Source: Nitrospirota bacterium (GTDB lineage Bacteria > JACPQY01). From it: 64,000 nt of DNA. Where the stretch lies: contig JACPAV010000009.1 of assembly GCA_016180645.1 (NCBI GenBank), positions 1 to 64,000 of the forward strand. The letters are read 5' to 3'. Position 1 is the first letter of the stretch; every line of letters begins with the position of its first letter. Shown piece by piece: positions 3,401-36,217 of this stretch. Made by a program: the position numbers and the translations under genes. The notes beneath the pieces are model-generated. The model saw nothing but the letters and a program-made list of their open reading frames with translations, was not told the origin of the DNA and made no database searches.

Positions 3401-4604
3401 CACCCAAAACGGATTCACGTTCGAACGCATGGAGGGACTCATGGGCGGCGGCCTCGTCAAGGGCCAGGGCCGCATCGATATGGACCACTTCTACCTGGGC
3501 GAGATGTATCTCTCCGCCTCCACTCGACGCGCCCAACTTCGTTTCCCCTCGTGGATTTCCTCGACGGCCGACTCGGACCTCGTTCTAGCCGGTCCCGTTC
3601 GCTCCCCGCTGCTCACCGGCGAGGTCAAGCTCCTCACCGCGCAAGTGGTGGAAAATCTGGACTGGAGACAGGAGCTGGTGGGCCTGGTGGACTTCCGGCG
3701 CCGCGGCTCCAGCGTGGAGACCATCGATCGGATCCCGGACCATGGCATCCGTCATGACGTCCATGTCTATGGCGGCATCAACGTGCGCAACAATATCGCC
3801 CGGGGCGACTTCCTCACGGACGTGCGCGTGGTCGGCATCAACCAGTACATCAACCTGTTCGGCGAGGTGAAGGGCACGCGGGGAACCTTCGATTTCAAGG
3901 GCCATGAATTCCGGGCCGACCGGGCGGTCGTCTTCTTCAACAATCCGGTCCGGATCGACCCTGAGGTGGAGCTGTACGGGAGCACCGTTGTGGAGGACGT
4001 GCCCCAGCGCTGCCTGTGCGAATTCAGCGGCGGCGTGGAGAATGTGGCCGACCAGGGCCGGGCCCAGGAGAAGGTGGACCTGAACGTCTCGTTCACGGCG
4101 CGCGGACGGCCGCTCTACGAGGAGGAGGGGGCCTTTCGCCTCCAGTTCTATGCGGATCGATGCGTAGCCGACAACGACCTCTACAGCCTGATCTATTTCA
4201 ACCAGTGCTTCGGAGACGCCTTCAAATCCGCCGGCGCCGCGAGTCTTGAAATTTACACCATCATTCTCAATCAGATTACTCGTGAGATCGCCCAGGGCCC
4301 CCTGCGTCAATTTCTGGGTCTGGAATCCATCGAATTCGACCCCGCCCAGTCACGATCGGGAGAGCAGTTCCTGTCGCTCGTGGTGACCAAACCGGTGGAT
4401 CGCGGTCGCGAGTTCTGTTCGCAGGATTTGAAGTGGCGCGGTGTCTTGAATGTGAAGGAGTACCAGAATGGAAGCCGGATCGAGCTCGACTGCCGGCTGT
4501 TCCCGAATCTCTCGGTCGACCTGTTCGGCCAGAGCTCGGGAGTGCAGGGGAACAAGCCATTCCAAGCGGGGGCAGAGATGAAAGTCCGCTTTGAGTTCTG
4601 GTAA
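498..4604 (+). CDS. tamB: Translocation/assembly module TamB (AsmA-like/DUF490) protein
   Basis: 1368 aa, N-terminal TM anchor, beta-rich repeats, C-terminal PLLTGEV...DPEVEL...RFEFW, adjacent to an Omp85 gene. Confidence 0.8.
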   Translation: MVRRIIILVVSLAIVAVAPLLLVRTQFAQEWLKRRIHSALADAGIDGTIGSLEVKPLPLELRVRDLSLQFTAKSSLDVRLKIPTALARPSLLGLARRELRLDELEIDSPHAEVVLSKGSPSTKPVGATSKPKLSVGRFVLTRGELSFHHATEGYGASLSGLNLKYEESPSQHVEWSVDSAAMSAHESVQIGSMRGRGKASIEKGRYRIEDVEWVSGEQTLHFSGEMVPDQDATLEARIRSDLSEWARFYPPIAEVAFAKEGEPLQGRLEADLKLRLPKLDAGALIVDADMRLEEFRWGLAHVPRAEGKFQWEKDSLTLNPLTLIAQNGGAPPAKAVIKGTVKRKSDGMFEAVADIEGENLTSAPLQRWIPLLTDIRRHGPLTAHLDLSGPRPKAGEPWEWKGSVEGRMPFVDLARNGEEISHLREIRLGSSVIFSESEVRLPSAHLQAAGLDLRGNAHLDKTAARVEFSSVEADLAKLSPIMGLPVTGKVQVGGVLTKQESDVRFTGAVHAGGLTVNKREFQSVEGDVRLEGGKWTAERLVIKMPKTTLQAVGEMDVLDTRFRATLDVQDGEFRDVAMLAGVSPEMLEKFSGRSYGQVVISGQFKPSVRIVSNGKIIVEDPVIAGESFEAAGIQWSSSPHPTGESAMPPPPTPAGAERDPTRVTDADIDMKAQVRHKEGTIELKGRIQPDGKMDGEWIVTSFPMDRFWPPEYAEYELRGRLEGRGSFGGTVFEPYFSGQFETRNFILDGENVADSVLWLERTPEGVRILASLMGDEVKLDGFIDPKRDNVFKARVDLANFRVQHLINVFGPMTEFKGYVDGHVDLAGHLLQMNTWTGRVDLRHIEFVDHGLLGTVTAPLVLNLENGFAHLDPYVIETSVGQITAHGEIQLPDRVDLEASGRVGLSILESIFPTIIAQADGLVEMRAKLHGPLDLKGLLLVLDADVTQGRISFREYPHPVEALHAKVEITQNGFTFERMEGLMGGGLVKGQGRIDMDHFYLGEMYLSASTRRAQLRFPSWISSTADSDLVLAGPVRSPLLTGEVKLLTAQVVENLDWRQELVGLVDFRRRGSSVETIDRIPDHGIRHDVHVYGGINVRNNIARGDFLTDVRVVGINQYINLFGEVKGTRGTFDFKGHEFRADRAVVFFNNPVRIDPEVELYGSTVVEDVPQRCLCEFSGGVENVADQGRAQEKVDLNVSFTARGRPLYEEEGAFRLQFYADRCVADNDLYSLIYFNQCFGDAFKSAGAASLEIYTIILNQITREIAQGPLRQFLGLESIEFDPAQSRSGEQFLSLVVTKPVDRGREFCSQDLKWRGVLNVKEYQNGSRIELDCRLFPNLSVDLFGQSSGVQGNKPFQAGAEMKVRFEFW

Positions 4605-21971: not shown

Positions 21972-22756
21972 AAGTCGAACTCTCCCACTTCCTTGGATGA
22001 GTAACCGATTGGTTGCCGATCCCCCTCGAACCCAATACCCTCCCAGCCCCGCGCATCACGATTTCCCCCGTAGACCGGGTCGCCATACATCGCTTCGACC
22101 GCATGCTCATAGAGCACTTTGGCGAATTCTTCCGAAAGGGATTGGACGAGTTCCAGTCGCGTGTTCTGGCTGAGGTCCGCCACCGCTTTCCCAAAGACTG
22201 AGCGGGCCACCTCGCGCGCCTCGGCCAACCCCTTGACGTAGGCTTCCTGATAGCCGATCACCGTCCCGTTGAATTCCCTCTCGGGAATCCCCTTCGATCC
22301 CTCAATCCTCGTCCGCCAGATCAGTTCTTCGGCTCTGGAGAGCGGGACAAAATGGCTGAAGAGATCGGCCCCCCCGCTCCGTCCGCTGAACGGCCCGCCC
22401 GCAAAGATCCGCGGAGGATCGAACCCAAGAGCGTTCAGGAGCGTTTCGATGTACTCCACTCCTCCCAGGTCTACAACCCCGGGGGACCCGCCTGCCGGGA
22501 TCAACGAATCAAGAAGCGCCGCAAGTGTATCCCGTTCTTCCGGGGTGAATCTGAATCCCGCGCTCTGCGGAGCCGCGCACGACCACCCTCGAAGGGAAAC
22601 GACAGCTCCCGATGCCGCCATCCACTTCAAGAAATCCCTCCGATGTATATCGTCCAGACCAGTTCCTACACAATCCTGGCTGCGAGGCCCGCCCGATATT
22701 TTTCCCCTCTCCCCTGGCGGGAGAGGGTGGGGGTGAGGGGGCTCTTTCATGCGCAT
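21968..22756 (-). CDS. Gluconate 2-dehydrogenase subunit 3 family protein with Tat signal
   Basis: HRRDFLK Tat motif and YGDPVYGGNRDARGWEGIGFEG. Start uncertain. Confidence 0.82.
   Translation of the reverse strand: MRMKEPPHPHPLPPGERGKISGGPRSQDCVGTGLDDIHRRDFLKWMAASGAVVSLRGWSCAAPQSAGFRFTPEERDTLAALLDSLIPAGGSPGVVDLGGVEYIETLLNALGFDPPRIFAGGPFSGRSGGADLFSHFVPLSRAEELIWRTRIEGSKGIPEREFNGTVIGYQEAYVKGLAEAREVARSVFGKAVADLSQNTRLELVQSLSEEFAKVLYEHAVEAMYGDPVYGGNRDARGWEGIGFEGDRQPIGYSSKEVGEFDL
22704..22741 (-). repeat. CCCTCACCCC...CCCTCTCCC/GGGAGAGGG palindromic REP-like repeat
   Basis: Hairpin CCCTCTCCC-N-GGGAGAGGG lying within the 5' part of the subunit-3 ORF. Confidence 0.65.
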
Positions 22757-23724
22757 CACCAGACGTGCAGCGCCCCGCCCTTGCCGCCCGTCACCAACCG
22801 GCACCCATCGGGGGAGAACGCAGAGGCAAAAGTGCCCCCCGTGTGGCCCTTCAATTCCGCCAGCCGTTTGCCCTCCGGTACCGACCAGATGATCACCATC
22901 TCGTCCCCCCCCCCGGATACGATCCATTTCCCGTTCGGAGACATCGAAACCGTGGCCACCGCCGCCTTGTGTCCATACATCGTCTTGAGCACGCTGCCCG
23001 TGACGACGTCCCACAGCTTGACCGTGAAATCCGAGCTTCCCGAAACGAGCTTCGAGCCGTCTGCGCTGAATCGTGCCACGTACACCGAGCCTTTGTGTCC
23101 TTCCAGATCACGCGCCGGCCGCTGAACGGGAACCGGCCACATCCGGATCGTATCGTCCGCGCCTGCCGTGGCGATGCTCTTTCCGTCCGGCGACACGGCA
23201 ATGGAATAGACGGCGCCTTCATGGGCTTGAATCTTGAGCGATTCCTTCCCATCCGGAAGCGTCCAGACTCGAATCGTTCCATCCCATCCACCCGAGAGAA
23301 TGTCGTTCGGCGAAAGGCCGACCACCGCGAACACAAACTCGCGGTGCCCCTTGAGAATCAGAGGCGGGCCGCCACTCATCGACCACACTCGAACGGTTCC
23401 ATCCCGGCTCGCCGAGGCGATCCGGCCGGGATCCGGCAAGACCGCGGCAGCATCCACCACGTTCGTGTGTCCTTCGAATTCCTGGACCAGCTTCCACGTC
23501 GCCGTATCCCACACTTTGACTTTTCGATCCCGACCCGACGTCACCATGCGCTTCCCATCGGGAAAAAAGGCGATTGATGCCGTGCTCTCCTGATGCCCCG
23601 CGATGATCTTGATCGGTTCCTTCGCCGTCCCCGGATCGAAGCACGGCTGCGCGAAGGCGAGGCGGCCCGAGACGACCCAGGCCGATATTCCAAGACCCCA
23701 TTTCCAAATATTCTGAACGACCAT
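22756..23724 (-). CDS. Secreted WD40-repeat protein
   Basis: About 7 GH...WD/W repeats after a signal-like N-terminus. Confidence 0.92.
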   Translation of the reverse strand: MVVQNIWKWGLGISAWVVSGRLAFAQPCFDPGTAKEPIKIIAGHQESTASIAFFPDGKRMVTSGRDRKVKVWDTATWKLVQEFEGHTNVVDAAAVLPDPGRIASASRDGTVRVWSMSGGPPLILKGHREFVFAVVGLSPNDILSGGWDGTIRVWTLPDGKESLKIQAHEGAVYSIAVSPDGKSIATAGADDTIRMWPVPVQRPARDLEGHKGSVYVARFSADGSKLVSGSSDFTVKLWDVVTGSVLKTMYGHKAAVATVSMSPNGKWIVSGGGDEMVIIWSVPEGKRLAELKGHTGGTFASAFSPDGCRLVTGGKGGALHVW

Positions 23725-23782
23725 GCAAAGATCCGACTCCCTTACTCAGTCCTCATCGCTTAGTCCTCAGCATTTCTTAGTG

Positions 23783-23855
23783 TGGAGGCGACCGGGATCG
23801 AACCGGTGGCCTCCCGGTTGCAAACCGGGTGCTCTCCCAGCTGAGCTACGCCCCC
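23783..23855 (-). tRNA. tRNA-Ala(TGC)
   Basis: GGGGGCGTAGCTCAGCTGGGAGAGC...TTGCAA...GTTCGATCC...CGCCTCCA; G3:U70 pair; CCA not encoded. Confidence 0.97.
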
Positions 23856-23966
23856 AATCATACAGTCCTGAGTCCTGAGCAATGAGTCCTGGGTCCTGAC
23901 GACGAATTCCCCTCCCACACTTCTTTCGTACTCATTACTCAGCGCTCGGCACTCAGCACTTTGGAA

Positions 23967-24042
23967 TGGGCCCGGGTGGACTTGAACCACCGACCTCCCG
24001 CTTATCAGGCGGACGCTCTAAAACCACCTGAGCTACGGGCCC
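23967..24042 (-). tRNA. tRNA-Ile(GAT)
   Basis: GGGCCCGTAGCTCAGGTGG...CTGATAA...GTTCAAGTCC...CGGGCCCA; CCA not encoded. Confidence 0.97.
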
Positions 24043-24127
24043 GATATTTCAATACGTTGCCTGGTTCACGGGGCCTTTCAGAGTCTGGTCCCAGTGCGGT
24101 TCGCAGTGCCGGGGCCAGAGTCTACGC

Positions 24128-24391
24128 TCAAGAAAGACCCCTGTAAACTTCCTTGCGATGCCTCACTCGCGTGAGCACGACCAACCGCGCCGCGTCATCG
24201 ATGGCGTAAACGATACGGTAGTCCCCTACGCGAATACGCCAATACCCGCTCCCAATGAGCTGCTTGCATCCTGCCGGTCTCGGATCTTCCTCAAGACCAA
24301 GAATCTTCTCGTGCACCCTGATCTGGGTAGCGTTGGGAAGAGCGCTGACTTCTTTTTCAACGCTTCGGGGGATTTCGACTCGGTACTTCAG
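24128..24391 (-). CDS. RelE/ParE family toxin
   Basis: KYRVEI...LEEDPRPAGCKQL...WRIRVGDYRIVYAIDD...VRHRKEVY. The full-length frame begins at a CTG overlapping the upstream TGA. Confidence 0.85.
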   Translation of the reverse strand: MKYRVEIPRSVEKEVSALPNATQIRVHEKILGLEEDPRPAGCKQLIGSGYWRIRVGDYRIVYAIDDAARLVVLTRVRHRKEVYRGLS

Positions 24392-24600
24392 GCTCTTGCC
24401 TTCTTCAGCTTCTCCCAGAAATCCCTGTAGCTGCGACGCGGCTCACGATTTCGAGAAATGGACACCAGAACGTCCGACAAGTCCTCAAGGAAATCCTTGC
24501 GTTGCTTCCCGAGCTCCGACCAGAATTCTCGAAGCGCTTCCGGTCCAAGGTTTCTCAGAGCTCTGGCCAGCAACCTTGCCTCACGTAGTTCGGTAGCCAC
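24388..24600 (-). CDS. Putative antitoxin
   Basis: Small ORF whose stop overlaps the RelE start; FLEDLSD...EPRRSY resembles antitoxin C-termini. Confidence 0.65.
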   Translation of the reverse strand: MATELREARLLARALRNLGPEALREFWSELGKQRKDFLEDLSDVLVSISRNREPRRSYRDFWEKLKKARA

Positions 24601-24607
24601 GAAATCA

Positions 24608-24636
24608 AGCATAATCGCAGACCCCTGTCGGGTCAA
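24608..24636 (-). promoter_or_regulatory. Sigma-70 promoter of the toxin-antitoxin pair
   Basis: TTGACC-N17-TATGCT, 7 nt upstream of GTG 24600. Confidence 0.55.
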
Positions 24637-24931
24637 CGGTATCTAAACCTCCGCGATTTAAGATCACGCCCCCAACTGGGGCGCGGTGCAAGGCATCCGC
24701 ACCGCCCGCCATGACATGGTTTCCGCCAAAGGCGGAGAGGCCTCGAAATGTTCCGATGCAAGATCCGGATGGCCGCTCCGATCATCATCCCCGCCGGAAC
24801 GGATTGGGGGCGTAACCGGATTGTCACGCGCCCCCGGTCCGCGCCGAACGGCGCGTCTTCCAAAGCCGCCGCCCTGATGAACGCACTTCTCAACAGGAGA
24901 ATTACGCAGAGGCCAGCCCGGAGGGGCCCTC

Positions 24932-25273
24932 CTACTTGAAAGTACGATCAGTCAAAAGTTTGCTACAACGAGCCGCGATGGTTCCGTAAAACCAGACCTG
25001 GAACCCGCAAAGGAAAAGCATGACCCCGGTAGCAATGGCCATCGGACTCAAATGAGCGGCTACGTTGATGGCCTTGACATAGCCCGGCCCCACTTCCGCC
25101 ACGCCAATACTCCAGTACCAAGCAGCGACCAAGGAATAGCCGCCAATGAGGCCCAGCGCCCAATTCGGCATCTCGGCCAAATGACGCCTTCTACTGGATC
25201 TACGTGAGACAGCAAGTTTCACGTAGCTCACGAGTAGGGATCCCATGTTTCTTCCAAATGGAATCAGTGCCAT
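24932..25273 (-). CDS. Hypothetical membrane protein
   Basis: AAGGAGG RBS before the ATG; two hydrophobic segments; directly downstream of the restriction enzyme. Confidence 0.55.
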   Translation of the reverse strand: MALIPFGRNMGSLLVSYVKLAVSRRSSRRRHLAEMPNWALGLIGGYSLVAAWYWSIGVAEVGPGYVKAINVAAHLSPMAIATGVMLFLCGFQVWFYGTIAARCSKLLTDRTFK

Positions 25274-25299
25274 CTCTCCTCCTTCCGCCAGATGACGGT

Positions 25300-26202
25300 T
25301 CAGATCGCCAAGTCGAAGGGTAGGTCGCTGATGTCGCGGAGCCGATGGCCCTCGATCAGCGTGGAGAGCTGTTCCTCTTGGTCGTCACGTCCCGACTCTC
25401 TTAGGGCAACGACCAATTCGTGCAGCGCAGCGTGATAGGTGCAGTCGATGTCCCCAGTCCCCCTGGCAATCGACGCGATCCTTGATGGCATTGGTTCCAT
25501 CGTGACGGCCACGATATGGGGCGTCTGGCCCTTGCGATTCCGAATCAGATTCAATGCTTCCGTTCGGATGTTCTGACTTCTGTCGCTCCTGATCGTCCAC
25601 TTGCATGAAACACTTGCATGCAGGATCGCCTTGCGTTCAGGGAAGTTCGACTTCCGTAACGGCGTCGCCTTTGCTACAGGTTCACGTTCCGAGACGATCA
25701 GGCCTTCAACGTTAATTTCCTCGTCGGTTGCCGACGCCCGGGCGACAATAATGTCAGGCGTTATCAGATAATCGCCCCCCAGCGTCGCAGAAAGTTGGGG
25801 ATATTTCTTGAGAACTTCCTGAAGGGTACGCAGATGCTCGTACTGATCAAATCCGCCTATCCGGGTTTCGCTGGGAGAAGTCGAGAAGACCCACTTTCCA
25901 GGTCGTAAATGGACCAGAAGACGGAATGCGTCCCGCAGGAACTGCGCAGTCACGGAGGTGAATAAAGATCCGGCCTCCTGCTCCTTCAGGGGGGCAGAAC
26001 GAAGCGGATGACCGAGGATCCGCACGAGCCGACTGGCAAGATCAATGCTCGTCTTGCTACCGCTGTCGGCGATAGAGTAGGTTCCCTCCTCGCCCCTTTC
26101 CGACAGGACCTCCCCACAGAGTTTTCGTTGATAATCAATCCTCAGTTCGGCCAGCGCACTACGTTTCACGGGTGGCCTCCAGTACCCTTCGGACTTTCCC
26201 AC
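25300..26202 (-). CDS. NgoMIV-family type II restriction endonuclease
   Basis: QYEHL, DYLITPDI, LHASVSCKWTIRSDRSQN, EALNLIRNRKG, GTGDIDCTYH. Confidence 0.9.
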   Translation of the reverse strand: MGKSEGYWRPPVKRSALAELRIDYQRKLCGEVLSERGEEGTYSIADSGSKTSIDLASRLVRILGHPLRSAPLKEQEAGSLFTSVTAQFLRDAFRLLVHLRPGKWVFSTSPSETRIGGFDQYEHLRTLQEVLKKYPQLSATLGGDYLITPDIIVARASATDEEINVEGLIVSEREPVAKATPLRKSNFPERKAILHASVSCKWTIRSDRSQNIRTEALNLIRNRKGQTPHIVAVTMEPMPSRIASIARGTGDIDCTYHAALHELVVALRESGRDDQEEQLSTLIEGHRLRDISDLPFDLAI

Positions 26203-26581
26203 TCACATTTGCTTCGTCCTTCAACTGACATTGCCAAACGACTATACGTCTCCATCCCCGTTTCCTCAACGCAATCCCATTTTTCCTGTCTCGTGCGGCA
26301 TTTCCCGTCAATTTCCTACACCAGAAAGTTCGATTGGAAGTCGGGATAGTCGCCTTCTTGCATCCTCGGTGACCGTGCCAGAAACAGCCGTTGACGAAGA
26401 TGGCGACTTTCCGGTCGGGAAGGATGAAATCGGGATTACCGGGGAGAGTACGAACATGACGTCGGAATTTCAGTCCGAGGCGTCGGAGGATTCTTGCGAG
26501 TGATTTTTCCGGGGACGTATCCCGTCCCCGGATTCGGGACATTATCTCAGAGCGTTTCTCGCGGGTGAAAACATCCGCCAC
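26159..26581 (-). CDS. vsr: Very short patch repair endonuclease
   Basis: MADVFTREKRSEIMSRI, LPGNPDF, FVNGCFWHGH, WQCQL. Confidence 0.95.
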   Translation of the reverse strand: MADVFTREKRSEIMSRIRGRDTSPEKSLARILRRLGLKFRRHVRTLPGNPDFILPDRKVAIFVNGCFWHGHRGCKKATIPTSNRTFWCRKLTGNAARDRKNGIALRKRGWRRIVVWQCQLKDEANVSGKVRRVLEATRET

Positions 26582-26583
26582 AT

Positions 26584-28038
26584 TTACGAGGCAGCCGCAA
26601 AGACTTGAGATTCAACAGCCAATCCGGAATCGAGCGTGGCGGCAAGAGATTCGGCAATTCGTTGAGCCAGTATCGGCGGGACGGCATTGCCGATCTGCAT
26701 GGCGACGGCGATCTTCGTCCCGTGGAAAATGAAATCATCCGGGAAGCTCTGTAGACGGGCGGCTTCCCGATGGGTGATTGGCCGGTGTTGTGCCGGATGC
26801 AGGTATCGGCCCTTTTCCGGCTTGAAGAACTCCGTTCGTATCGTGAAAGCCGGCCGGTCCCACCAGAGACGACCGAACAGGTCCGTCCCCCCGCTCTTCT
26901 TTCGAATCCAGCAGCCCGGCGTCAAGTCGGGCCGTTTTCTTTGCAGATCGAACCGATTTCCGCCCTCGGGGATGCACTTGTATCGGATCAGACTTTCTTT
27001 CGTCGGTGTCCGTCCGAAATGGAGGTCCATCGGCGGGTCTGCCTTTCCCACGCGGATTTCGGTGCCTTCCGGTACGGGAAGGTCACCGATGCCGCGGCGC
27101 ACGGACTCCCAGGGGAGTAATCCGCTTGCGAACAGGCTTCCTTTCTTCGCTGGATCGGCATGTGTCGGCTTGGGCAATTGGGGCACACCTACCCGCGACG
27201 CGACAACAATGGCCCGCTTGCGTCTCTCCGGAACACCGTAGTCGGCCGCATTCAAGACGTCCGCCACGACCTTGTACCCGAGGTTCTCGGACATCTTACG
27301 AATCTGTTGGAATTCGAACGAGGCAAGAAGCTCCGATACATTTTCCATCACGTAGGCTAACGGGCGGACGCGCTTGACCACCTCCATGAACGCTACCCAT
27401 AGCTGCTTCCGGGAGTCCGTAGCCCGCTGCTTGTTCAGGAGGCTGAACCCTTGGCACGGTGGACCGCCAATCACCACATCGCCAGCGGGGATGACGAAAT
27501 CCTTCCTCGCCAGCAATTCATTGATGTCGCCCGCCACGCAATGCTCACCGAAGTTCGCGTTGTAGGTCTTTACCGACCACGGATCGAAATCATTGGCGAA
27601 TACCGAGCGGAATATCCCGGACCTAGCGAATCCAAGGCTGAAACCACCTGCGCCGGCAAAAAGATCGATCAGGCGGAAGGCGCGGTATGAGCCTTGCTCG
27701 GTTTCGTCCGATGGAGTGAGCGGTCCGTGTGGTTCCGGGATTCGGTAGACCTTGAACGACTTCCGGACCACTGCCACCGCCTCTTTCGGGTGTTCTGCGA
27801 AAATCCGCGCCACATCCTTCGGGAGACTCCCCGCTAGAACATGCAATTCCTCTCGCCGTGTATGGAGAACCTTGGCGATCCTGTCGAGAAGCTTGGCTGA
27901 GGGAGGGACCTTCCCTGATTCAATCCGGCTAACATGTGCCGGATCGACCTTGAGGAGTTTTGCAAGATTCTTGAGACTGACCTTCCGCAGTTTTCGGAGA
28001 GACCTGATCCGTTGTCCAAGCTCTTTCGCCGCTTCCAT
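26584..28038 (-). CDS. XRE-HTH-fused DNA (cytosine-5) methyltransferase
   Basis: N-terminal HTH (LKNLAKLL...HVSRIESG); DLFAGAGG, GGPPCQGFS, MENV, QIGNAVPP. Confidence 0.93.
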   Translation of the reverse strand: MEAAKELGQRIRSLRKLRKVSLKNLAKLLKVDPAHVSRIESGKVPPSAKLLDRIAKVLHTRREELHVLAGSLPKDVARIFAEHPKEAVAVVRKSFKVYRIPEPHGPLTPSDETEQGSYRAFRLIDLFAGAGGFSLGFARSGIFRSVFANDFDPWSVKTYNANFGEHCVAGDINELLARKDFVIPAGDVVIGGPPCQGFSLLNKQRATDSRKQLWVAFMEVVKRVRPLAYVMENVSELLASFEFQQIRKMSENLGYKVVADVLNAADYGVPERRKRAIVVASRVGVPQLPKPTHADPAKKGSLFASGLLPWESVRRGIGDLPVPEGTEIRVGKADPPMDLHFGRTPTKESLIRYKCIPEGGNRFDLQRKRPDLTPGCWIRKKSGGTDLFGRLWWDRPAFTIRTEFFKPEKGRYLHPAQHRPITHREAARLQSFPDDFIFHGTKIAVAMQIGNAVPPILAQRIAESLAATLDSGLAVESQVFAAAS

Positions 28039-28049
28039 GTGATGAGCCC

Positions 28050-28079
28050 AATCTATCAAGGTTGACTGTTCTTGTCAAC
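28050..28079 (-). promoter_or_regulatory. Sigma-70 promoter overlapped by a palindromic operator
   Basis: TTGACA(28078-28073)-N17-TAGATT(28055-28050); inverted repeat GTTGAC-N7-GTCAAC at 28061-28079. Confidence 0.75.
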
Positions 28080-28203
28080 TCAACGACAATTGCACTTTGA
28101 TAGGGGCGCTGATAGAGTGCCCTCGATGTGGTGGTAGACAACGTGTTTCATCATCGGTCCTCCAGTCCATGTGACCTGGGAATGTAGCGATTTCGTCTGA
28201 ACG

Positions 28204-30369
28204 ATGGTCACGGACCCTCTCGCGAGCGACTTCGATCCCATTCCCTTTCGGATACATCCACGCGTTTTCGCGGCGCTCGGAGCAGACCTGGTCACAAATG
28301 ACGTCGTTGCGGTCATCGAGTTGGTTAAGAACTCATATGATGCCTTTGCCTCAAATGTTTGGATTCGCTTCAAAACAGATCTGGAAGAAGGCCCCTTCAT
28401 CGAAATTGAGGATGATGGCCAAGGAATGTCAAAAGAGATCATCGAGGACGTGTGGTGTGTGGTGGCAACGCCGCACAAGGAGAAAAATCCCTACGCCCGG
28501 AGTGGTGGCAAGCGGCGGCGTGTAGCCGGCAAGAAAGGACTTGGGAGGCTATCGGCCGGTCGCCTGGGCGAGAGTCTCCAGGTGCTAACTCAACCCACGG
28601 GACAAGCATGCTGGGAAGTCAAAGTCAGCTGGAGCGATCTCGCTGGCCATACAGCGCTATCATCCTGTATTGCCCAGCTTCGAAGGTACCCCAAGGAATC
28701 TCCGTTCAACGTGTCGGGCACAAGGCTCCGGATATTCGGGCTCACACTCCCGTGGGACGCTTCGAAAGTTGCCGACTTGGAGGACAACCTTACGCGGCTC
28801 ATATCTCCCTTTGCCGCTGTCGGTACGTTCAACATCTTCCTAGTGGGGCCAGACTCATCCGGTGCTGCACCGCTAAGCATTCAACCGCCAGAATTCCTGA
28901 ACGCTCCCAAGTACGTGATCCTCGGTGAGGCAGACTCAGGCGGTAAGGTGATCGCGGAATACAGATTCGACCCGATTCGGGATGGAAAAGGAAGAACCAA
29001 GCGGGTTTCCCTCACGTGGCAACAGGCCTACGATTCCATGAAGGAGCGCTGGCAATCTCTTGGGAGGAAGAGATTCCTATTTGATGAAAAAGGGCCAAAG
29101 TGCGGGCAGTTCTCATTCGAAATCCGAGCATGGGACATTGACCCCGAAGGGACCAAGGAGATCCAGGATCGCTTCGACTACCAAAAAAGCAAGGTTCGTA
29201 GGGCAATCCGAGCGCACAAGGGTATCTCGGTCTACCGGGATGGGATTCTGATACTCCCCAAATCGGAGACATCGCGGGACTGGCTTGGTTTGGACTTAAG
29301 GCGCGTAAGCCGGGTTGGTGGCCGCCTGAGCACGAATCAGATCGTCGGATACGTTGCCCTTACGGCAGCAAACAACCCCGATATCGAGGACACCAGTGAC
29401 CGCGAGAGGCTCGTGGATAATCTCGCGGTCGCGCAGTTCGAAGAAATTCTCATCACTGTGGTCCAGCTTCTCGAAAACGAACGTGATGGCGACAGATCTC
29501 AAAAACCACCCTCGCAGCCACTTGTCGAACTATTCTCGCGTCTGCATGCGGACAGTGTCGTTTCTGAGACCGAAGAGATTGTCCAAAGCGAAGGCCCGGC
29601 CTCTGACGTCCTGCCCCTTCTAAAGCAGTTCAACGATGAACTGAAGACAACGGCCAAGGAGCTTCAGCAGCGCTTCACTTTCTACAGCCAGATGGCTACG
29701 GTCGGCACCATCGCCCAAATCCTCGTGCATGAGATACGAAATCGAACGACATCATTTGGTCATTTCGTCCGCATGGTAAGAGACAGGCTTGGTCCGCTGA
29801 AGGATCCTGATGTTGCCGAGGCAGCAACGTGGGCTGAGGAGGCAATTCATTCACTGGAGAATCTTGCCGATACGTTCGCTCCCTTGGCGAGCCGAAGCTT
29901 CAGGCGGCGCATTAGAGATTCCGTCGTGGAGGAACGCATTCGCGCCTGCTTTGAACTCCTCCGGGGTGATTTTAGGAAGAAGAAGGTGGATTGTACTTTT
30001 CCAGAGGGAAAAACACGGGTGGCAATGGACCCAGGTGAACTCGACGCCGTTGTTCTGAATCTCATGACCAACTCACTATACTGGCTTGGAAGCGTCAATG
30101 ACAAACATGGAAAACTCCTGTTCCAGCTTGAGAAAATAGATCGTGGATCTCGCGTTCGTGTTTGGGCGCACGACAACGGCCCTGGCGTCGCCAAGGAGGA
30201 CGCTCCGAAGATTTTCGATCCTGGATTCACAAGAAAACCGGGGGGTATCGGCATGGGGTTAACTGTTGCGAGCGAGCTGGTGCGCGAATATGGTGGGCAG
30301 ATGCAGATTTCATCAGGCAAGCTGGGAGGTGCGTCCTTCGGTTTCGACCTCCCAGCCAGGAAGGACTGA
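28204..30369 (+). CDS. MORC/MutL-like GHKL ATPase fused to a histidine kinase
   Basis: N-terminal ELVKNSYDA, DDGQGM, GKKGLGR, GTRL; C-terminal H-box HEIRN, NLMTNS, DNGPG, FDPGFT, GIGMGL. No TM segment. Confidence 0.88.
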   Translation: MVTDPLASDFDPIPFRIHPRVFAALGADLVTNDVVAVIELVKNSYDAFASNVWIRFKTDLEEGPFIEIEDDGQGMSKEIIEDVWCVVATPHKEKNPYARSGGKRRRVAGKKGLGRLSAGRLGESLQVLTQPTGQACWEVKVSWSDLAGHTALSSCIAQLRRYPKESPFNVSGTRLRIFGLTLPWDASKVADLEDNLTRLISPFAAVGTFNIFLVGPDSSGAAPLSIQPPEFLNAPKYVILGEADSGGKVIAEYRFDPIRDGKGRTKRVSLTWQQAYDSMKERWQSLGRKRFLFDEKGPKCGQFSFEIRAWDIDPEGTKEIQDRFDYQKSKVRRAIRAHKGISVYRDGILILPKSETSRDWLGLDLRRVSRVGGRLSTNQIVGYVALTAANNPDIEDTSDRERLVDNLAVAQFEEILITVVQLLENERDGDRSQKPPSQPLVELFSRLHADSVVSETEEIVQSEGPASDVLPLLKQFNDELKTTAKELQQRFTFYSQMATVGTIAQILVHEIRNRTTSFGHFVRMVRDRLGPLKDPDVAEAATWAEEAIHSLENLADTFAPLASRSFRRRIRDSVVEERIRACFELLRGDFRKKKVDCTFPEGKTRVAMDPGELDAVVLNLMTNSLYWLGSVNDKHGKLLFQLEKIDRGSRVRVWAHDNGPGVAKEDAPKIFDPGFTRKPGGIGMGLTVASELVREYGGQMQISSGKLGGASFGFDLPARKD

Positions 30370-30373
30370 AGTC

Positions 30374-31429
30374 GTGCGGAAGCTGAGAGTACTCTTCGTC
30401 GACGATATCGAAGTGAGTATCGGTCCTGCGATGAAGTGGGTCAAAGAGTCTCACGACTGCGACTGCATACCGTTTGATACTTTTGAGACCGAGATCGAGG
30501 TTCGCCAACCCCATATTATCATCATAGACCGATTCCAAGGCACGCCTGTAAGTGGCAGTGATGAGGGCAGCAAGGTCTTCGACATGATTTGGCTCCGGCG
30601 TTTTTGCCCCGTTGTGATTTACTCGGCGTTTCCCGATGAAGTGACGGATGATCGCGAGAGACATCCGTTCGTGAAACACGTCAAGAAGGATCAGGACCTT
30701 GGAAAGTTCAAGGAGGCGGTGACAGCGATGGTTGCACACGCGCAAACCATCGAGGGAGTCGAGCGACATATCAGGACCCAATTCGCCGTGGCCATGCGCG
30801 AGGTCGCGCCTTATGCCTCTTCAGTCTCCTCAAATAAGAAGGAATACGACGATGCCGTCACCAGACATGCCCGACGACGACTTGCAGCACTGATGGACCA
30901 AATGAGTCTGGGAGCCCTGAGAAGTTGGGAACAATACATCTTCCCTCCTGTCAGCAAGGACCCAAAACTCGGAGATATTATCAGAAAAAAAGATGGTAAA
31001 ACCGATGATGTGCAGGCATTTCGACTCGTTCTCACACCTTCGTGCGACATGGCAGCGGGACAAAGCAACAGAACCGAGCAAATACTGGTAGCCAGCTGCA
31101 TCTCCAATAAGATCGGGCTCAAGGCTCTTGGAATGGATGGTGCAAAACAGGAGAAAATAAAGGGAAATCTGATTACAGTGGGCCATCGAGACGGAATCCT
31201 GCCGCTTCCGGGTCTGAAAGGACACTTTCCCTCAATGATGGCGGATCTAAAACAATTGGAGCTTTTGCAACGAGACGATGTGACGGAGGAGAAGACATAT
31301 TTGCGGATCGCTTCAATTGACAGCCCATTCCGGGAGCTCGTAGCCTGGGCGTATCTAAGCGTTGCGTGCCGGCCCGGCCTGCCTGTACGAGATTTTGATG
31401 GGTGGGCCAGTCAGATAGCCAGCGAGTGA
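30374..31429 (+). CDS. Receiver-domain protein with uncharacterised C-terminal domain
   Basis: VLFVDD, IIIID (phospho-acceptor position), IYSA, VKK; C-terminal LGDII...VLTPSCD. Confidence 0.8.
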   Translation: MRKLRVLFVDDIEVSIGPAMKWVKESHDCDCIPFDTFETEIEVRQPHIIIIDRFQGTPVSGSDEGSKVFDMIWLRRFCPVVIYSAFPDEVTDDRERHPFVKHVKKDQDLGKFKEAVTAMVAHAQTIEGVERHIRTQFAVAMREVAPYASSVSSNKKEYDDAVTRHARRRLAALMDQMSLGALRSWEQYIFPPVSKDPKLGDIIRKKDGKTDDVQAFRLVLTPSCDMAAGQSNRTEQILVASCISNKIGLKALGMDGAKQEKIKGNLITVGHRDGILPLPGLKGHFPSMMADLKQLELLQRDDVTEEKTYLRIASIDSPFRELVAWAYLSVACRPGLPVRDFDGWASQIASE

Positions 31430-31447
31430 ATTTCGCTCTACCAGAAA

Positions 31448-32485
31448 ATGGAACTCGCTGCATTTGATTTTTTTTGTGGCGCAGGTGGTCTTACACGCGG
31501 TCTATTGGATGCCGGGATCACGGTTCTCGCCGGTTTCGATGCTGATGGAAGCTGCGCTGAGACCTATGAACGAAACAACTCCCCATCAAGGTACGTAGAA
31601 GCGGATATTCGGACTTTGGCGATGAAAGACCTTCGGAACAGTTCCAAGGGAGCAATCATGTCAGAGATGTTGTTTGTTGGCTGTGCACCATGTCAGCCCT
31701 TCACCAAGCAGGTCAAGAACGGCAATTCCGCACCCGTCGAGACACTCCTGGGCGCGTTTGGACGATTGATTGAGATGGCAACTCCCAGAACTGTTCTGAT
31801 GGAGAATGTGCCTGGAATTGCGAGAGTGCGGGGGAACAGCACGTTCAAGCGATTCCTTCGTTGCCTGGAGAGTAACGGCTATCTCGTCGATGTCGGCGTG
31901 CTGGACGCAAAGAAACTGGGAGTCCCTCAAACCCGAAGGCGTCTGATATTGATTGCCATGCGCGGAAGAAAGCCGACATTGCCGAAACCAATCTCTAGTG
32001 CCGGACTCCGACCTTACAGGACAGTCCGGCAGGCAATCGGGCACTTTCCCCCGATCGAAGCCGGCGAAAGCCATCTCACAGTGCCGAATCATACGGCGGC
32101 CTCGCTCAGCCCCACCAACCTGGAACGAATAAAGCACACCCCTAAAGACGGAGGAGATCGGCGTTCATGGCCCCCTTATCTGCGGCTGGAGTGTCACAAT
32201 GAAAACCATCAGGGACACACAGACGTGTACGGAAGGATGAGGTGGGACGCTCCTGCCCCAACCCTTACGGGGAGATGCAACAGCCTTTCCAATGGCAGAT
32301 ATGGCCATCCAACTCAAGACAGAGCGATCAGCCTTCGGGAGGCTGCTGCCCTCCAATCGTTTCCGGATCGATACGTGTTTTCCGGTACCGATCAGCATAT
32401 TGCCAAGCAAATTGGGAACGCGGTCCCAGTTGCTCTCGCCAAAAGCCTTGGCGAGCACATTCTAAAAATCCAGGCTTCATCATGA
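31448..32485 (+). CDS. DNA (cytosine-5) methyltransferase
   Basis: DFFCGAGG, CAPCQPF, MENVPG, GVPQTRRR, QIGNAVP. Confidence 0.93.
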   Translation: MELAAFDFFCGAGGLTRGLLDAGITVLAGFDADGSCAETYERNNSPSRYVEADIRTLAMKDLRNSSKGAIMSEMLFVGCAPCQPFTKQVKNGNSAPVETLLGAFGRLIEMATPRTVLMENVPGIARVRGNSTFKRFLRCLESNGYLVDVGVLDAKKLGVPQTRRRLILIAMRGRKPTLPKPISSAGLRPYRTVRQAIGHFPPIEAGESHLTVPNHTAASLSPTNLERIKHTPKDGGDRRSWPPYLRLECHNENHQGHTDVYGRMRWDAPAPTLTGRCNSLSNGRYGHPTQDRAISLREAAALQSFPDRYVFSGTDQHIAKQIGNAVPVALAKSLGEHILKIQASS

Positions 32486-32902
32486 TCCAACCGTGAAAAC
32501 CATACACAAGTATGGTTGCAGTAGTGATCGCAGTGGATTGTGAGATGCAGGGCAAAACTGGGCAAAGGACGGCAAAGTGAAGGGGCACGAGTAGGGCGGT
32601 TTTCGCTCGTAGGGACGCGAGGTTATCGAAGAGCTGCAAAGAGCGGCAAACTACGGCGAGAAAGGCGTGAGCGGCTCACTGCGATTCGTTGCCCGGCCGT
32701 CGTAGCCGGGCCTGAAGCGCAGTACTGCGCCCTCCTTGGCCCTGTATCAGGCGGACGCTCTCCCGCGTTCTGCGCGACCCGTCCTGGACCGCTCTGTTGC
32801 GCAGGACCACACCATCCTCAGCGAGGTAAAACCACCCCTTGCGACGGGGGGACGGTGGGCAAGGAGGAGGGCACCTTGTACATGCTCTCAATTACCGCCC
32901 GC

Positions 32903-33760
32903 TCATCTCTTGGCCGCCCTGCCGTGTGGCTCCGATCGGAAAACTTCGATCTCCAACAGCCGGCCCTCCGGGTCGTAGGAGAAGATGACCGGGAACTTTC
33001 GAAGGAGTCTTCTTGGAAGCTCGTAGGCAAAGCCGCCGTAGACGGGCGTCCTCCCCGCCCTCTTCCGCCGAGAGTCGCCCCGGGAGCGTCGAAGGAACCG
33101 AATGCCAGCCAAGTGATCGTCCACAAAAGCCTCGATCTCGCCTTCGCGCAATCGAATGGAACGGTCCGATGCAATGTTGATCTTTCCCCCGGCCCATCGG
33201 GATTCGTATGCATGATTCACGCGGACGGCCAGTTTCGTCCCGTGAAACCCGATCTCGTCATCAAGCAGCGTCGCCTCCGTGCGGTGCTTCCGCACGGCTC
33301 CACTGCTACGGGGCGACGGGATGAATCGACCGATCCGCTTCCTGCCCTTTGCGGGCAAGAGATATTCGGGGTTAGACGTTCCCTTGATTTGACCGCAGGT
33401 GCGGCAGGCATGTTGACCGCCGCCGATGCGTCGGTATCCCTTCGGATGGCGGCACTGAAGCCCGTAGTAATGCCAGGCCGTCCCGAGCTCCTGATAGATA
33501 TTGTAGAAAAGATCCGCCCGGCGACCGTCTTGAAATGGTTTCCCTCGCAGCCACTTCTCCGATACGTAGTCCATCGCCCGCAGAACCCTCCGTATGGCCT
33601 CGCCGACCTCCTTGGAGCTTTGCACGGAGAAAGGGGGCGTCGAACGAAGGAACTTCACGGAAGACTGTCCCTTCGTCCGATTCAGCGGATTCATCCGACA
33701 CCGTTTCCCATGCTCATCCCTGGTCTTCTTTTCGCCAAATGAGGAAGATTGGCGACGCAA
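32903..33760 (-). CDS. Hypothetical protein
   Basis: Long ORF with a C-x-H...CxxC cluster; no family recognised; start uncertain. Confidence 0.45.
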   Translation of the reverse strand: MRRQSSSFGEKKTRDEHGKRCRMNPLNRTKGQSSVKFLRSTPPFSVQSSKEVGEAIRRVLRAMDYVSEKWLRGKPFQDGRRADLFYNIYQELGTAWHYYGLQCRHPKGYRRIGGGQHACRTCGQIKGTSNPEYLLPAKGRKRIGRFIPSPRSSGAVRKHRTEATLLDDEIGFHGTKLAVRVNHAYESRWAGGKINIASDRSIRLREGEIEAFVDDHLAGIRFLRRSRGDSRRKRAGRTPVYGGFAYELPRRLLRKFPVIFSYDPEGRLLEIEVFRSEPHGRAAKR

Positions 33761-33902
33761 CGGTATTTCTTCTCAAATCGCCGGATTCTGCTCTGAAATT
33801 GAGAGGCCGCCAGCGAGGACGTATCCAAAACCCTTCGCCTGCCGTTCGTCTCCCCGAGCAATCTCATTTCTTCAGCACAACTTCCAACAAGGGGATGATT
33901 TG

Positions 33903-34328
33903 CTATTTCGGCGGGCCTGAAACGGATCCCCTGAGCCGATCCAGGCTCCATGTGCCCGGGCCGTAACAGGCGATGAAGAGAAAGACGAAGGAGTAGAGCG
34001 CGGCCGGTTCGCCCTTGTTGACGGCGGGGAAAAAGTTGGAGTCCAATTGGAATTTCCAGTGGAATTGGATGTAGGCGACGGCCATGGTTCCGCTCGCAAG
34101 GAAGGCCGCCCAAGTGGTGAACAAACCCAGGGCCATGGCGAGACCCGTCACCAGCTCGATGATGCCACCAAACCAGAGCTGCGTTCCGAACTCCGGCTGG
34201 AAATCGGACAGGACGCCGAAGATCTTCTGCATGCCGTGGAAAGCAAACATGAGTCCGCTCACGATGCGAAGGGTCGCGTATGCGGCTTCAGTCTTTGGTG
34301 CCAGAAATCGAACAATCATACCCATCAC
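33903..34328 (-). CDS. DoxX family membrane protein
   Basis: LRIVSGLMFAFHGMQK, GLFTTWAAFLASGTMAVAY, NKGE, GPGTWSLD. Confidence 0.92.
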   Translation of the reverse strand: MMGMIVRFLAPKTEAAYATLRIVSGLMFAFHGMQKIFGVLSDFQPEFGTQLWFGGIIELVTGLAMALGLFTTWAAFLASGTMAVAYIQFHWKFQLDSNFFPAVNKGEPAALYSFVFLFIACYGPGTWSLDRLRGSVSGPPK

Positions 34329-34415
34329 CTCCTCTTCAGATCATTTCTGTAGCGTGGAGACATAAAAGTCAAACCTCACGCCGTAACGGCGCACACGTTC
34401 AGACCACAGACGTAG

Positions 34416-34655
34416 ATGATGGAATCGAGAGTCATTTTGTACACGGCGGACGGGTGACAGAGCTGCGAGGCGGCGAAGGTGTATCTTTCGCAAAAGGGAG
34501 TCGCGTTCGAGACTAGGAATGTGAGTCACGACGAGCAGGCCTTCCGTGAGCTGCGCGACGTCTACAACGCCACGGGTACTCCAATCATCGTGATCGGCGA
34601 TCAGGTTGTGCGCGGATTCGATCTCGGCCGCATCCGCCGCTTGTTGAACCTCTGA
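34416..34655 (+). CDS. Glutaredoxin-like selenoprotein (UxxC)
   Basis: MMESRVILYTADG-TGA-QSCEAAKVYLSQKGVAF...GTPIIVIGDQVVRGFD; the in-frame TGA (34455-34457) sits at the first Cys position of CxxC. Confidence 0.85.
34473..34491 (+). promoter_or_regulatory. Putative bacterial SECIS hairpin
   Basis: GCGAAGG-TGTAT-CTTTCGC stem-loop starting 15 nt after the UGA, with GU in the apical loop. Confidence 0.6.
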
Positions 34656-34948
34656 TGGCCGCGGAAATCGTCTGTCCCTTCTGCGGCCAATTCCTTCCGC
34701 TGCCCGCGGGAGCCACGGAAGGCAATACTTTCTCCTGCCCCCGATGCGCCGGATCGCGGCTGCGCGTTCTCCGAAACGGGTCTTCTTTTTCTCTACAGCC
34801 GATCCCCACCGCCAGTTGTGCCGTGTGCGGAGACATTCTCGATCTTCCAAATTCGATCCGGACCGGCGACCTCACCACACATTGCAATACATCGCAGAAA
34901 GTCGAACAGGAGTTGGGCGCCTTCGCCCTGACCCCCATTCAATCTTGA
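34655..34948 (+). CDS. Double zinc-ribbon (LysW-like) small protein
   Basis: CPFC...CPRC and CAVC...HC; TGATG overlap with the glutaredoxin. Confidence 0.65.
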   Translation: MAAEIVCPFCGQFLPLPAGATEGNTFSCPRCAGSRLRVLRNGSSFSLQPIPTASCAVCGDILDLPNSIRTGDLTTHCNTSQKVEQELGAFALTPIQS

Positions 34949-34956
34949 TCTGATTC

Positions 34957-35331
34957 ATGCCGTTCAGCGAGGGATTGGCCGAGAGAGTCCGAAAAGTATT
35001 GCATTCCCGCAATGGGATCGTCGAAAAACGGATGTTCGGCGGGATCGCCTTCATGCTGAACGGAAAGATGTGTTGCGGGGTGCTGAAAGATGATCTTGTC
35101 GTCCGCGTTGACCCGACCAATCAGGACGCGATGCTCAAGGAGCGCGGCGCACGACCGATGGACTTCACGGGTCGCCCGATGAAGGGCTACCTTTACATTA
35201 ACCCCGGTGGCTGCGATACGGCAGCTCTCTTGAGGAAATGGCTCGACCGCGCGATCCGCTTCACTGAAAGTCTTAGCGCGCCCTCGCAACGATCGAAGCG
35301 TAGATCGAATCGCTCCAAGCGGTCCGCCTGA
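34957..35331 (+). CDS. TfoX/Sxy N-terminal domain protein
   Basis: EKRMFGGIAFMLNGKMCCGV, MDFTGRPMKGY. Confidence 0.88.
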   Translation: MPFSEGLAERVRKVLHSRNGIVEKRMFGGIAFMLNGKMCCGVLKDDLVVRVDPTNQDAMLKERGARPMDFTGRPMKGYLYINPGGCDTAALLRKWLDRAIRFTESLSAPSQRSKRRSNRSKRSA

Positions 35332-36217
35332 CCTTCGAATAGTAGACGCGGAGACTGTCATCCACCGTCTGCGGATCGCGGCCCAGGACTTGCCGGAGCG
35401 TATCCGGCGCACAGTGATACCCGTGCTCCGCCATCATCTCCAGGAACAAGTATGACTCGTAGGCATTGAAGGACACCGGCCTGAGAAGAGTGCCGAGCGT
35501 CCTCAACATTCCGCGCGGGATGGCCGCCACCCGCACGGTTCTATTCAAGATTGAGCCTATCTTAGCCGCTCCCTGTCGAAGGGTGAGCCCCTCACTCCCG
35601 CCCAGTTCGTAGAAACGATTGCGGGGAGGCTGACCGGCGATCTTCACGATGGCCTCGGCCAGGTCCGCCGTCGAAATGAATGAGATCGGACCCGAGTCCG
35701 GCGCGGGAATGACGACCAAGCCCCATCGCTCGATTGGCGGACCCAACATGCCGACCAGACTGTTCGGGCCAGTCATGAAGGTGGACGGACGCAGAATCGA
35801 GTAGCCCAATCCAATCTCGCGCAGCGCCTTCTCCGCTTCCCGCTTCGCCGGCAGGATCACGGGGGCGTAGTCGCGGTCGGCCCAGAGCAACGACATCAGC
35901 ACGAAATGCTGAACACCGGCGTCTTTCGCGGCACGGATCAGATTCCTATTGCCCTCCGCGTCCGTGGCAAACAGTATTTCTTTCGTTCGGGCGTAATGCC
36001 GACCGACGAGCGAGATGACCGTCTCCGACCCTTTGCAAGCCAGGGGAAGCGTCTCCGGCGAGCACACGTCCCCTTTGACGGCCTCGGCCCCGAGTTCATG
36101 GAACTCATGCGCTGCTGAATCGGAACGCACCATGACCCTGACGCACCGCCTCTCCTCGATGAGTCGGCGGACCACCCTCCGTCCGACCTCAGTGGTTGCA
36201 CCTGCAATCAGAATCAT
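35273..36217 (-). CDS. NAD(P)-binding SDR/NmrA-like oxidoreductase
   Basis: ILIAGAT, GNRNLIRAAKDAGVQHFV, ILRPS. Confidence 0.85.
   Translation of the reverse strand: MILIAGATTEVGRRVVRRLIEERRCVRVMVRSDSAAHEFHELGAEAVKGDVCSPETLPLACKGSETVISLVGRHYARTKEILFATDAEGNRNLIRAAKDAGVQHFVLMSLLWADRDYAPVILPAKREAEKALREIGLGYSILRPSTFMTGPNSLVGMLGPPIERWGLVVIPAPDSGPISFISTADLAEAIVKIAGQPPRNRFYELGGSEGLTLRQGAAKIGSILNRTVRVAAIPRGMLRTLGTLLRPVSFNAYESYLFLEMMAEHGYHCAPDTLRQVLGRDPQTVDDSLRVYYSKVRRTAWSDSIYASIVARAR

Follow-up and report, generated by a model that had tools for sequence, protein, structure and literature searches.

The 64,000-nucleotide stretch of Nitrospirota DNA analysed here (hereafter the window; contig JACPAV010000009.1, positions 1 to 64,000) carries between positions 25300 and 32485 six genes arranged as two independent units: a right unit on the plus strand (28204-32485) encoding a GHKL ATPase joined to a histidine kinase (K), a response-regulator-like protein (R) and a C5 cytosine DNA methyltransferase (M2), and a left unit on the minus strand (25300-28059) encoding a type II restriction endonuclease, a Vsr endonuclease and a second C5 methyltransferase (M1). 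An earlier note, made from the sequence alone, had described all six genes, and each was confirmed where it had been placed; the note had taken them together for one restriction island wired to a phosphorelay, and had proposed that the neighbourhoods of K homologues be compared, that the C-terminal domain of R be modelled and that the PADLOC defence models be run. From these analyses, K, R and M2 were found to form a cassette that recurs in many phyla, and the C-terminal domain of R was predicted to adopt a MazF/PemK fold. Within the right unit only 4 bases separate K from R and 18 bases separate R from M2, and the three genes therefore form a tight operon.

K (28204-30369, plus strand, 721 residues) contains the two GHKL folds that the earlier note had seen, with HATPase_c_3 (PF13589) matching residues 35-150 and HATPase_c (PF02518) residues 609-719; NCBIfam histidine-kinase models aligned to residues 479-720, and PDB profile matches to solved kinases covered residues 475-716. 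The motifs of the N-terminal ATPase (E39/N43 in IELVKN, D70xGxG74 and G109-G114) are accompanied by those of the kinase (H509 in the H-box VHEIRNRT, N619/N623, D657xGxG661 and G681-G685), the latter comprising the H-box histidine and the N, G1, F and G2 boxes by which a histidine kinase is recognised. In an alignment of 35 K homologues, with a mean column identity of 71%, E39, N43, D70, G72, G74, G109, G112 and G114 of the ATPase and H509, N619, N623, D657, G659, G661, G681, G683 and G685 of the kinase were all invariant (35/35), and these include the two motifs, ELVKN (E39..N43) and HEIRN (H509), that had been singled out beforehand. When 8000 candidates were scored, 1568 proved to be homologues of K at E<=1e-3. 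When the six proteins of both units were scored on the Kyte-Doolittle scale in segments of 19 residues, the maximum was 1.53 (in K) and none reached 1.6; the lack of any hydrophobic stretch of transmembrane strength agrees with K being soluble, as had been claimed.

The head of K was found to be related to that of a restriction-enzyme family. Residues 16-213 matched positions 4-198 of the NF050001 model (BbrUII/HgiDII; E 1.3e-20) with 73.5 bits against a cut-off of 550, a score that falls short of full-length membership, and K therefore carries a restriction-enzyme-type ATPase head, after which it departs from the model into a middle region of its own and a kinase. In PADLOC-DB 2.0.0, K was matched only through the ATPase heads of REase_II. 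With its N-terminal GHKL ATPase, intact ATP-binding motifs and a context of restriction-modification (R-M) genes, K also has the features by which MORC and paraMORC proteins are recognised. A full member of NF050001 (751 bits) was seen in the P2-like coliphage PhiR44_1, where it was labelled 'ParaMORC3' by the depositor and adjoins Dcm; in this Escherichia phage (locus 3998-7046) the BbrUII/HgiDII-family enzyme and Dcm are flanked by the portal gene on one side and replication gene A on the other. The middle region of K (approximately residues 150-480) is highly conserved, and a PDB profile search with residues 150-475 gave no match; its best atlas look-alike scored 0.83 and is a lead only. 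In the record of phage CP-1639 (locus 2738-6332), an E. coli 'remnant integrative element', a 614-residue histidine-kinase-like protein matched the K middle region at residues 289-432 (E 2e-4) and was followed by a 582-residue protein without a family match.

R (30374-31429, plus strand, 351 residues) most likely starts at the GTG at 30374, which has GGAAGGA upstream. As a single sequence it matched nothing in the Pfam (including PF00072), NCBIfam or PADLOC models, and the earlier note had called it a receiver protein with an unknown C-terminal domain. Relatives were plentiful (905 at E<=1e-3 among 2785 candidates, forming 591 representative clusters at 50% identity), and a profile of 104 homologues matched solved receiver domains over residues 2-120, with a best E of 5.9e-8. 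The residues that define a receiver (an acidic pair, the phospho-acceptor aspartate, a serine or threonine and a lysine) were all found: D52 and K105 were present in 104/104 homologues, position 10 was acidic in 104/104, D11 was kept in 100/104, and position 84 was serine or threonine in 104/104. The protein is laid out as a receiver (approximately residues 1-109), a long two-helix hairpin with an RRRxAAxMD motif (110-176) and a beta-rich C-terminal domain (approximately 178-351).

The C-terminal domain of R was predicted with confidence by AlphaFold2, with a predicted local distance difference test (pLDDT) score of 94.6 for whole R and 93.5 for residues 178-351 alone. When the model of residues 178-351 was compared with the PDB by Foldseek, 46 matches were obtained at E<=1e-3, and all of the rows listed were MazF-family toxins (target-normalised TM scores 0.59-0.77), including MazF of E. 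coli, B. subtilis, S. aureus and M. tuberculosis, YdcE and MoxT. In the viral structure library BFVD, 12 of the top 16 rows were named PemK-like, MazF or endoribonuclease. As modelled, the C-terminal domain of R thus has a MazF/PemK fold, an assignment that is new in this analysis. Its most conserved positions are C224, D225, P318, E321 and P337, which are invariant, followed by S223, D316, S317, R320 and R333, which are nearly so. The highest-scoring named look-alike of the domain in the atlas was a cluster of 118-residue hypothetical proteins (0.92), and another cluster, 18% of whose members carry PF19192, scored 0.75; both are leads only. A homodimer prediction with two copies of R (score 0.34, mark 0.42) counts neither way.

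The third gene of the operon, M2 (31448-32485, plus strand, 345 residues), is the second C5 methylase that had been described to the right of K; it matched PF00145 with 185.9 bits, TIGR00675 and PADLOC MTase_II. It carries the motifs PCQ (residues 81-83), ENV and QIGNAVP, and its solved relatives are DNMT1, M.HaeIII and M.HhaI. In 55 close orthologues, 50-67% identical to M2, the variable region was as conserved as the catalytic core, and from this pattern, which agrees with how very strongly K is conserved, the orthologues probably share one target specificity. M2 is the modification partner of K-R.

To describe the cassette across genomes, one genome per species was scanned. This gave 97 pattern matches; 87 were confirmed, and the 80 best loci were retained. 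The six proteins of the two units then served as phmmer queries (E<=1e-5) against the open reading frames (ORFs) called in each locus, and matches at most 700 bases apart were joined into a cassette. K lay directly upstream of R in 79/80 loci, the exception (L077) being cut at the start of the locus. A C5 methylase was present within the K-R cassette in 74/80 loci and anywhere in the locus in 78/80, so the neighbourhood comparison bore out the proposed association of K homologues with methylases. Vsr was found in the cassette in 47/80 loci and anywhere in the locus in 54/80, and a homologue of the NgoMIV-family nuclease of the left unit in 0/80. The cassette genes were packed head to tail in permuted orders: with V standing for Vsr and M for the methylase, KRM was seen in 26 loci, VKRM in 21, KRMV in 6 and MKRV in 6, with others rarer and one further locus (KRMv) in which Vsr was on the opposite strand. 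The titles of the records named Planctomycetota, Chloroflexota, Acidobacteriota, Nitrospirota, Desulfobacterota, Bacteroidota, Spirochaetota, Verrucomicrobiota, Pseudomonadota, Bacillota and others. Recurrence of the right-hand trio as a cassette across many phyla, in 80 loci, puts its arrangement far beyond chance. Two of the loci, L011, titled as a Rhodothermales metagenome-assembled genome (MAG), and L012, titled as an Enterobacteriaceae MAG, had identical K, R and M2 scores and are probably one sequence binned twice, so the taxon labels of such MAGs need care.

More distant relatives were found on plasmids and showed that the output of the system can be exchanged. A tblastn search with the first 480 residues of K matched 88 plasmid records, among which Campylobacter accounted for 41. 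The order was K, R, dcm on the Campylobacter jejuni plasmid pAR-0413-1, M, K, R in Acaryochloris, K, R with dcm further on in a Bacillus sp., and K, R on an Enterobacter mori plasmid. The R proteins of E. mori and C. jejuni were homologous to the window R over their full length (hhalign probability 98.6-98.7%), and R of the E. mori type had 1292 relatives at E<=1e-3 among 3838 candidates, with sources naming Klebsiella, Serratia, Aeromonas and Neisseria. The Campylobacter K-R-dcm records (pAR-0413-1 and 40 further plasmid records) are conjugative plasmids in which the genes adjoin type IV secretion genes. Other plasmids paired K with an N6-methylase and a separate HNH or metallo-beta-lactamase (MBL) nuclease, and had no Vsr: the order was N6-methylase, K, a 215-residue weak receiver and HNH in Deinococcus gobiensis, N6-methylase, K, a 227-residue protein and an MBL hydrolase in Hymenobacter volaticus, and K, a 209-residue weak receiver, HNH and N6-methylase in Bacteroides finegoldii. 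The Bacteroides 209-residue protein matched the receiver part of R only, and weakly (E 0.0036). As bona fide nucleases hold the place of the R C-terminal domain in these sister systems, that domain is most readily understood as the effector, and this is the strongest argument for its role. A distant DNA search of E. coli genomes with the K-R genes gave no match.

Gene content, intact catalytic motifs, conservation of the cassette, the predicted fold of the R C-terminal domain and the exchange of effectors in relatives were the observations from which a mechanism could be proposed. We put the probability at about 0.5 that K-R-M2 is an R-M-like, methylation-linked defence in which the kinase reports unmethylated DNA by phosphotransfer and thereby activates a MazF-fold nuclease, and it is at even odds that the operon acts as an autonomous module whose 'restriction' half is a phosphorelay. 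We infer what K would sense, which way control would run, on what substrate the effector would act, and any defence phenotype. M2 would mark the cell's own DNA with 5-methylcytosine at its target site; the head of K, related to the BbrUII/HgiDII 'paraMORC3' enzymes, would detect DNA without the mark together with the middle region, the kinase module having replaced the nuclease tail; K would then autophosphorylate on His509 and pass the phosphate to Asp52 of R; and the phosphorylated receiver, acting through the helical hairpin, would release the MazF/PemK-fold domain to cleave nucleic acid, most likely RNA. The outcome could be growth arrest, abortive infection or the destruction of invader transcripts. 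The relay itself appears competent, since H509 and the ATP-site motifs are invariant in the 35 K homologues and the receiver residues are kept in the 104 R homologues, and the adjacency of K and R in 79/80 loci is only circumstantial evidence of His-to-Asp phosphotransfer between them. A more specific version, in which the system is an R-M analogue lacking any restriction endonuclease and a paraMORC-type ATPase reads the lack of the cassette's 5-methylcytosine on incoming DNA and signals through a His-to-Asp relay to a MazF-fold nuclease with a new Cys/Asp/Glu site, is put forward tentatively. Of what the earlier note had proposed, the phosphorelay-gated defence therefore stands as the best hypothesis, with the intact catalytic residues of K and R and the tie to a methylase behind it, and the wiring of the whole island does not.

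Several results weigh against this reading. An hhalign comparison of the R-family profile with E. coli MazF was not significant (probability 0.5%, E 0.11), and the PemK Pfam model gave no match to R even at E<=10. R217 corresponds by local motif likeness to what we take to be the catalytic arginine of MazF, whose catalytic residues are assumed here, and is kept in only 70/104 homologues; the conserved S-C-D and D-S-P-F-R-E constellation of R is unlike MazF chemistry, and the domain may act in some other way or simply bind. No model of PADLOC-DB 2.0.0 matched R. K-R pairs occur with no methylase nearby (locus L032; the Enterobacter mori plasmid), which strict restriction-like lethality does not predict unless a methylase lies elsewhere, and in Burkholderia glumae, where the order is K, a 397-residue protein, Vsr and M, the 397-residue protein had no detectable likeness to R (E 0.85). 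DNA binding and the reading of methylation by K are steps that we infer, and full-text searches of the open literature found no characterised version of the system, no MazF-like receiver effector and no experimental work on it.

The left unit was as the earlier note had described it, with an HTH-C5 methylase, vsr and an NgoMIV-family nuclease reading leftward. The nuclease (25300-26202, minus strand) matched the full PF09015 model with 329 bits and was called REase_II by PADLOC, Vsr, the very-short-patch repair endonuclease (26159-26581, minus strand), matched PF03852 and TIGR00632 (130 bits), and M1 (26584-28059, minus strand, 491 residues) joins a helix-turn-helix (HTH) domain at residues 13-73 (HTH_3/HTH_31; PF01381/PF13560) to a DNA_methylase domain at 128-472 (PF00145, 212.7 bits); M1 and M2 are 34% identical. 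The Vsr and nuclease ORFs as listed overlap by 44 bases (26159-26202), and as the Pfam match of the nuclease begins at residue 24, its true start may be further downstream. With a full NgoMIV_restric nuclease, a C5 methylase and Vsr, the unit has what defines an NgoMIV-type type II system and nothing unusual was seen in it; it is a complete, ordinary and self-contained R-M system, and a neighbour of K-R-M2 rather than a component. Vsr repairs deaminated 5-methylcytosine, so its presence beside K-R is explained by the C5 methylase; its source here is the NgoMIV unit.

This bears directly on the proposal that the island is one wired system, in which K would sense failure or inhibition of the adjacent NgoMIV system and trigger R as a back-up. 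In its favour are only the closeness of the two units and the divergent, palindrome-containing promoter region that they share; K-R has a methylase of its own, the NgoMIV unit is complete without K-R, and the nuclease is missing from all 80 loci. Sensing of R-M inhibition by the ATPase was not supported, the juxtaposition is that of neighbours in a defence island, and the proposal, already disfavoured, is now very improbable. Regulation offers a milder link: K and R could be a two-component system that governs how the methylase, or R-M genes nearby, are expressed, as speculated in the Discussion of PMC8011034, and control of this kind is the usual role of kinase/receiver pairs. R, however, lacks a DNA-binding output domain and ends instead in a toxin fold, relatives place HNH or MBL nucleases at the position of its output, and the sensor head of K is common to a restriction-enzyme family, which together make a regulatory role improbable.

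A function in repair or epigenetic maintenance, with K acting like MutL alongside Vsr on the T:G mismatches left by deamination of 5-methylcytosine and R tuning the process, would suit the presence of Vsr in 47/80 cassettes and a K head belonging to the GHKL ATPases typified by MutL, MORC and Hsp90, and an analogy with MutL and Vsr was drawn by Iyer et al. 2008. Vsr is nevertheless missing from 33/80 cassettes against 6 for the methylase and accompanies C5 methylases generally, in the variants built around an N6-methylase the nucleases are HNH or MBL and Vsr is absent, and neither a MazF-fold effector nor a kinase is expected in a repair pathway; we regard this, too, as improbable. Nearer in substance to methylation-linked defence is the possibility that K-R monitors how far the host's chromosome is methylated and causes death or arrest in cells from which the cassette has been lost and M2 is being diluted out, so that the module is selfish and its main role is to stabilise a mobile element rather than to resist phage. 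Mechanistically this would not differ from the defence reading. Toxins of the MazF fold are classic examples of addiction toxins, M, K and R are tightly linked (74/80), and K relatives are carried on plasmids (41 Campylobacter among the 88 records). Addiction and defence are inseparable by sequence, classical R-M systems doing both, and the K-R pairs without a nearby methylase count against addiction; as the main role of the module we consider it unlikely.

The region has other marks of an island. The G+C content was 0.52-0.56 over 25-32.5 kb, compared with 0.60-0.67 in the flanks, in agreement with the earlier note, to which the region had looked less GC-rich. Between the two units lies a divergent intergenic region of 144 bp (28060-28203), in which a palindrome, GTTGAC-N7-GTCAAC, was read directly at 28061-28079; its 6-nucleotide arms were not listed by the repeat finder at the settings used. 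Promoter-like matches, which are matches to consensus only, were found at 28062-28090 on the plus strand and 28078-28050 on the minus strand, with the -35 box of each strand overlapping one arm of the palindrome. The palindrome is a candidate operator for the HTH domain of M1, with a possible effect on the K-R-M2 operon as well. Immediately to the left of the low-G+C segment lie, on the minus strand, paired genes for tRNA-Ala(TGC) (23782-23855) and tRNA-Ile(GAT) (23967-24042). Such a pair is the typical occupant of the 16S-23S spacer; no ribosomal RNA genes were found when sought in positions 22000-36000 of the window, and the pair could mark the site at which the island integrated. To the right, 32540-33900 has no recognisable gene, holding a 400-residue ORF (32540-33742) whose translation does not look protein-like and ORFs that overlap it, all of them without family matches; it may be a decayed end of the island, and beyond it lies a DoxX gene (33903-34328, minus strand). 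The G+C dip, the adjacent tRNA genes, the spread over many phyla and the plasmid-borne relatives of K suggest that K-R-M2 is horizontally mobile.

If the methylation-linked defence proposed here is correct, epigenetic self-marking and two-component signalling, which are usually studied apart, would be joined in one immune module, and if its endonuclease-less form holds, self would be told from non-self on DNA and the sentence carried out on RNA, as abortive infection. In the latter case the family would also be a large class of defence systems, whose sister branches use HNH, MBL or other effectors. K-R would be a tractable system in which to ask how a GHKL/MORC-type ATPase reads DNA methylation, a question that eukaryotic MORCs raise as well, and a MazF-fold enzyme under the control of a receiver would extend the toxin repertoire. 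In practice, a common gene trio that current defence-finders leave unannotated gains a concrete hypothesis.

Parts of this architecture had been recognised before. Bellieny-Rabelo, Pretorius and Moleleki (2021, PMC8011034) described kinases with HATPase_c_3, HEF_HK and HATPase_c domains that adjoin Response_reg_2 proteins with 91.6% linkage, in neighbourhoods enriched in C5 methylases and Vsr, for which descent from paraMORCs was proposed and a regulatory link to R-M was speculated; the earlier note was therefore right that MORC-like ATPases fused to kinases had been noted bioinformatically in R-M neighbourhoods. The architecture of K and its methylase/Vsr context were thus already known by bioinformatics in 2021, and the passages of that paper concerned with the pair assign neither a fold nor a role to what remains of the Response_reg_2 protein; the predicted fold of the R C-terminal domain is the new element here. 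The window K has the same architecture (HATPase_c_3, a DHp with its histidine, and HATPase_c), is soluble, has a receiver-like neighbour whose remainder is likewise unannotated and shares the C5 methylase/Vsr neighbourhood that is common to the K-R loci. Neither PF19191 nor PF19192 matched the window K or R at E<=10, or any of 84 relatives (34+28+6+4+12), a negative that holds for a library copy whose ability to detect is unconfirmed, since no scanned protein matched either model. The receivers of the relatives matched PF00072 weakly instead of PF19192, whose sole link to R is the atlas lead at 0.75, and K-R is therefore taken to be the same kind of element in a sister family, and not a demonstrated member of HEF_HK.

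The paraMORCs themselves were defined in R-M contexts by Iyer et al. 2008. The BbrUII/HgiDII enzymes have an ATPase head related to that of K, and both families are paired with a C5 methylase; the remainder of the enzyme, including its nuclease, is replaced in K by the middle region and the histidine kinase, and the nucleolytic function has presumably moved to R. With MazF, PemK and Kid the C-terminal domain of R has its predicted fold in common, and a local GD...R-x-V-L-[ST]-P resembles the start of E. coli MazF, whereas the domain is larger by approximately 60 residues, has inserted helices and keeps other invariants (C224, D225, E321); no antitoxin gene accompanies R, and control would come from the fused receiver. 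MADS, which is known to be linked to methylation and includes a 'histidine kinase', was considered as a match and rejected, that kinase being only a boundary gene of the island and the methylase an N6 enzyme.

The earlier note had stated that no mechanism was known for a combination of this kind, which overlooks Detocs (DtcA/DtcB/DtcC), where a relay from a kinase to a receiver-effector was tested as an abortive-infection defence (10.1101/2023.01.24.525353). As in the mechanism proposed for K-R, phosphotransfer in Detocs activates a receiver-fused effector that targets the cell, the effectors are exchangeable and, in Detocs, the outcome is abortive infection; the logic of its mutants (His, Asp, effector site) can be applied directly to K-R. 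Neither a PADLOC match to R nor a third receiver gene in the operon was found that would make K-R-M2 a member of Detocs, whose models PADLOC-DB 2.0.0 presumably includes. Detocs, as described, has a TPR sensor, a third receiver gene that acts as a 'buffer', mostly PNP ATP-nucleosidase effectors and no methylase, whereas K-R-M2 has a GHKL ATPase as its sensor, no buffer gene in the operon, an effector of predicted MazF fold and an obligatory C5 methylase.

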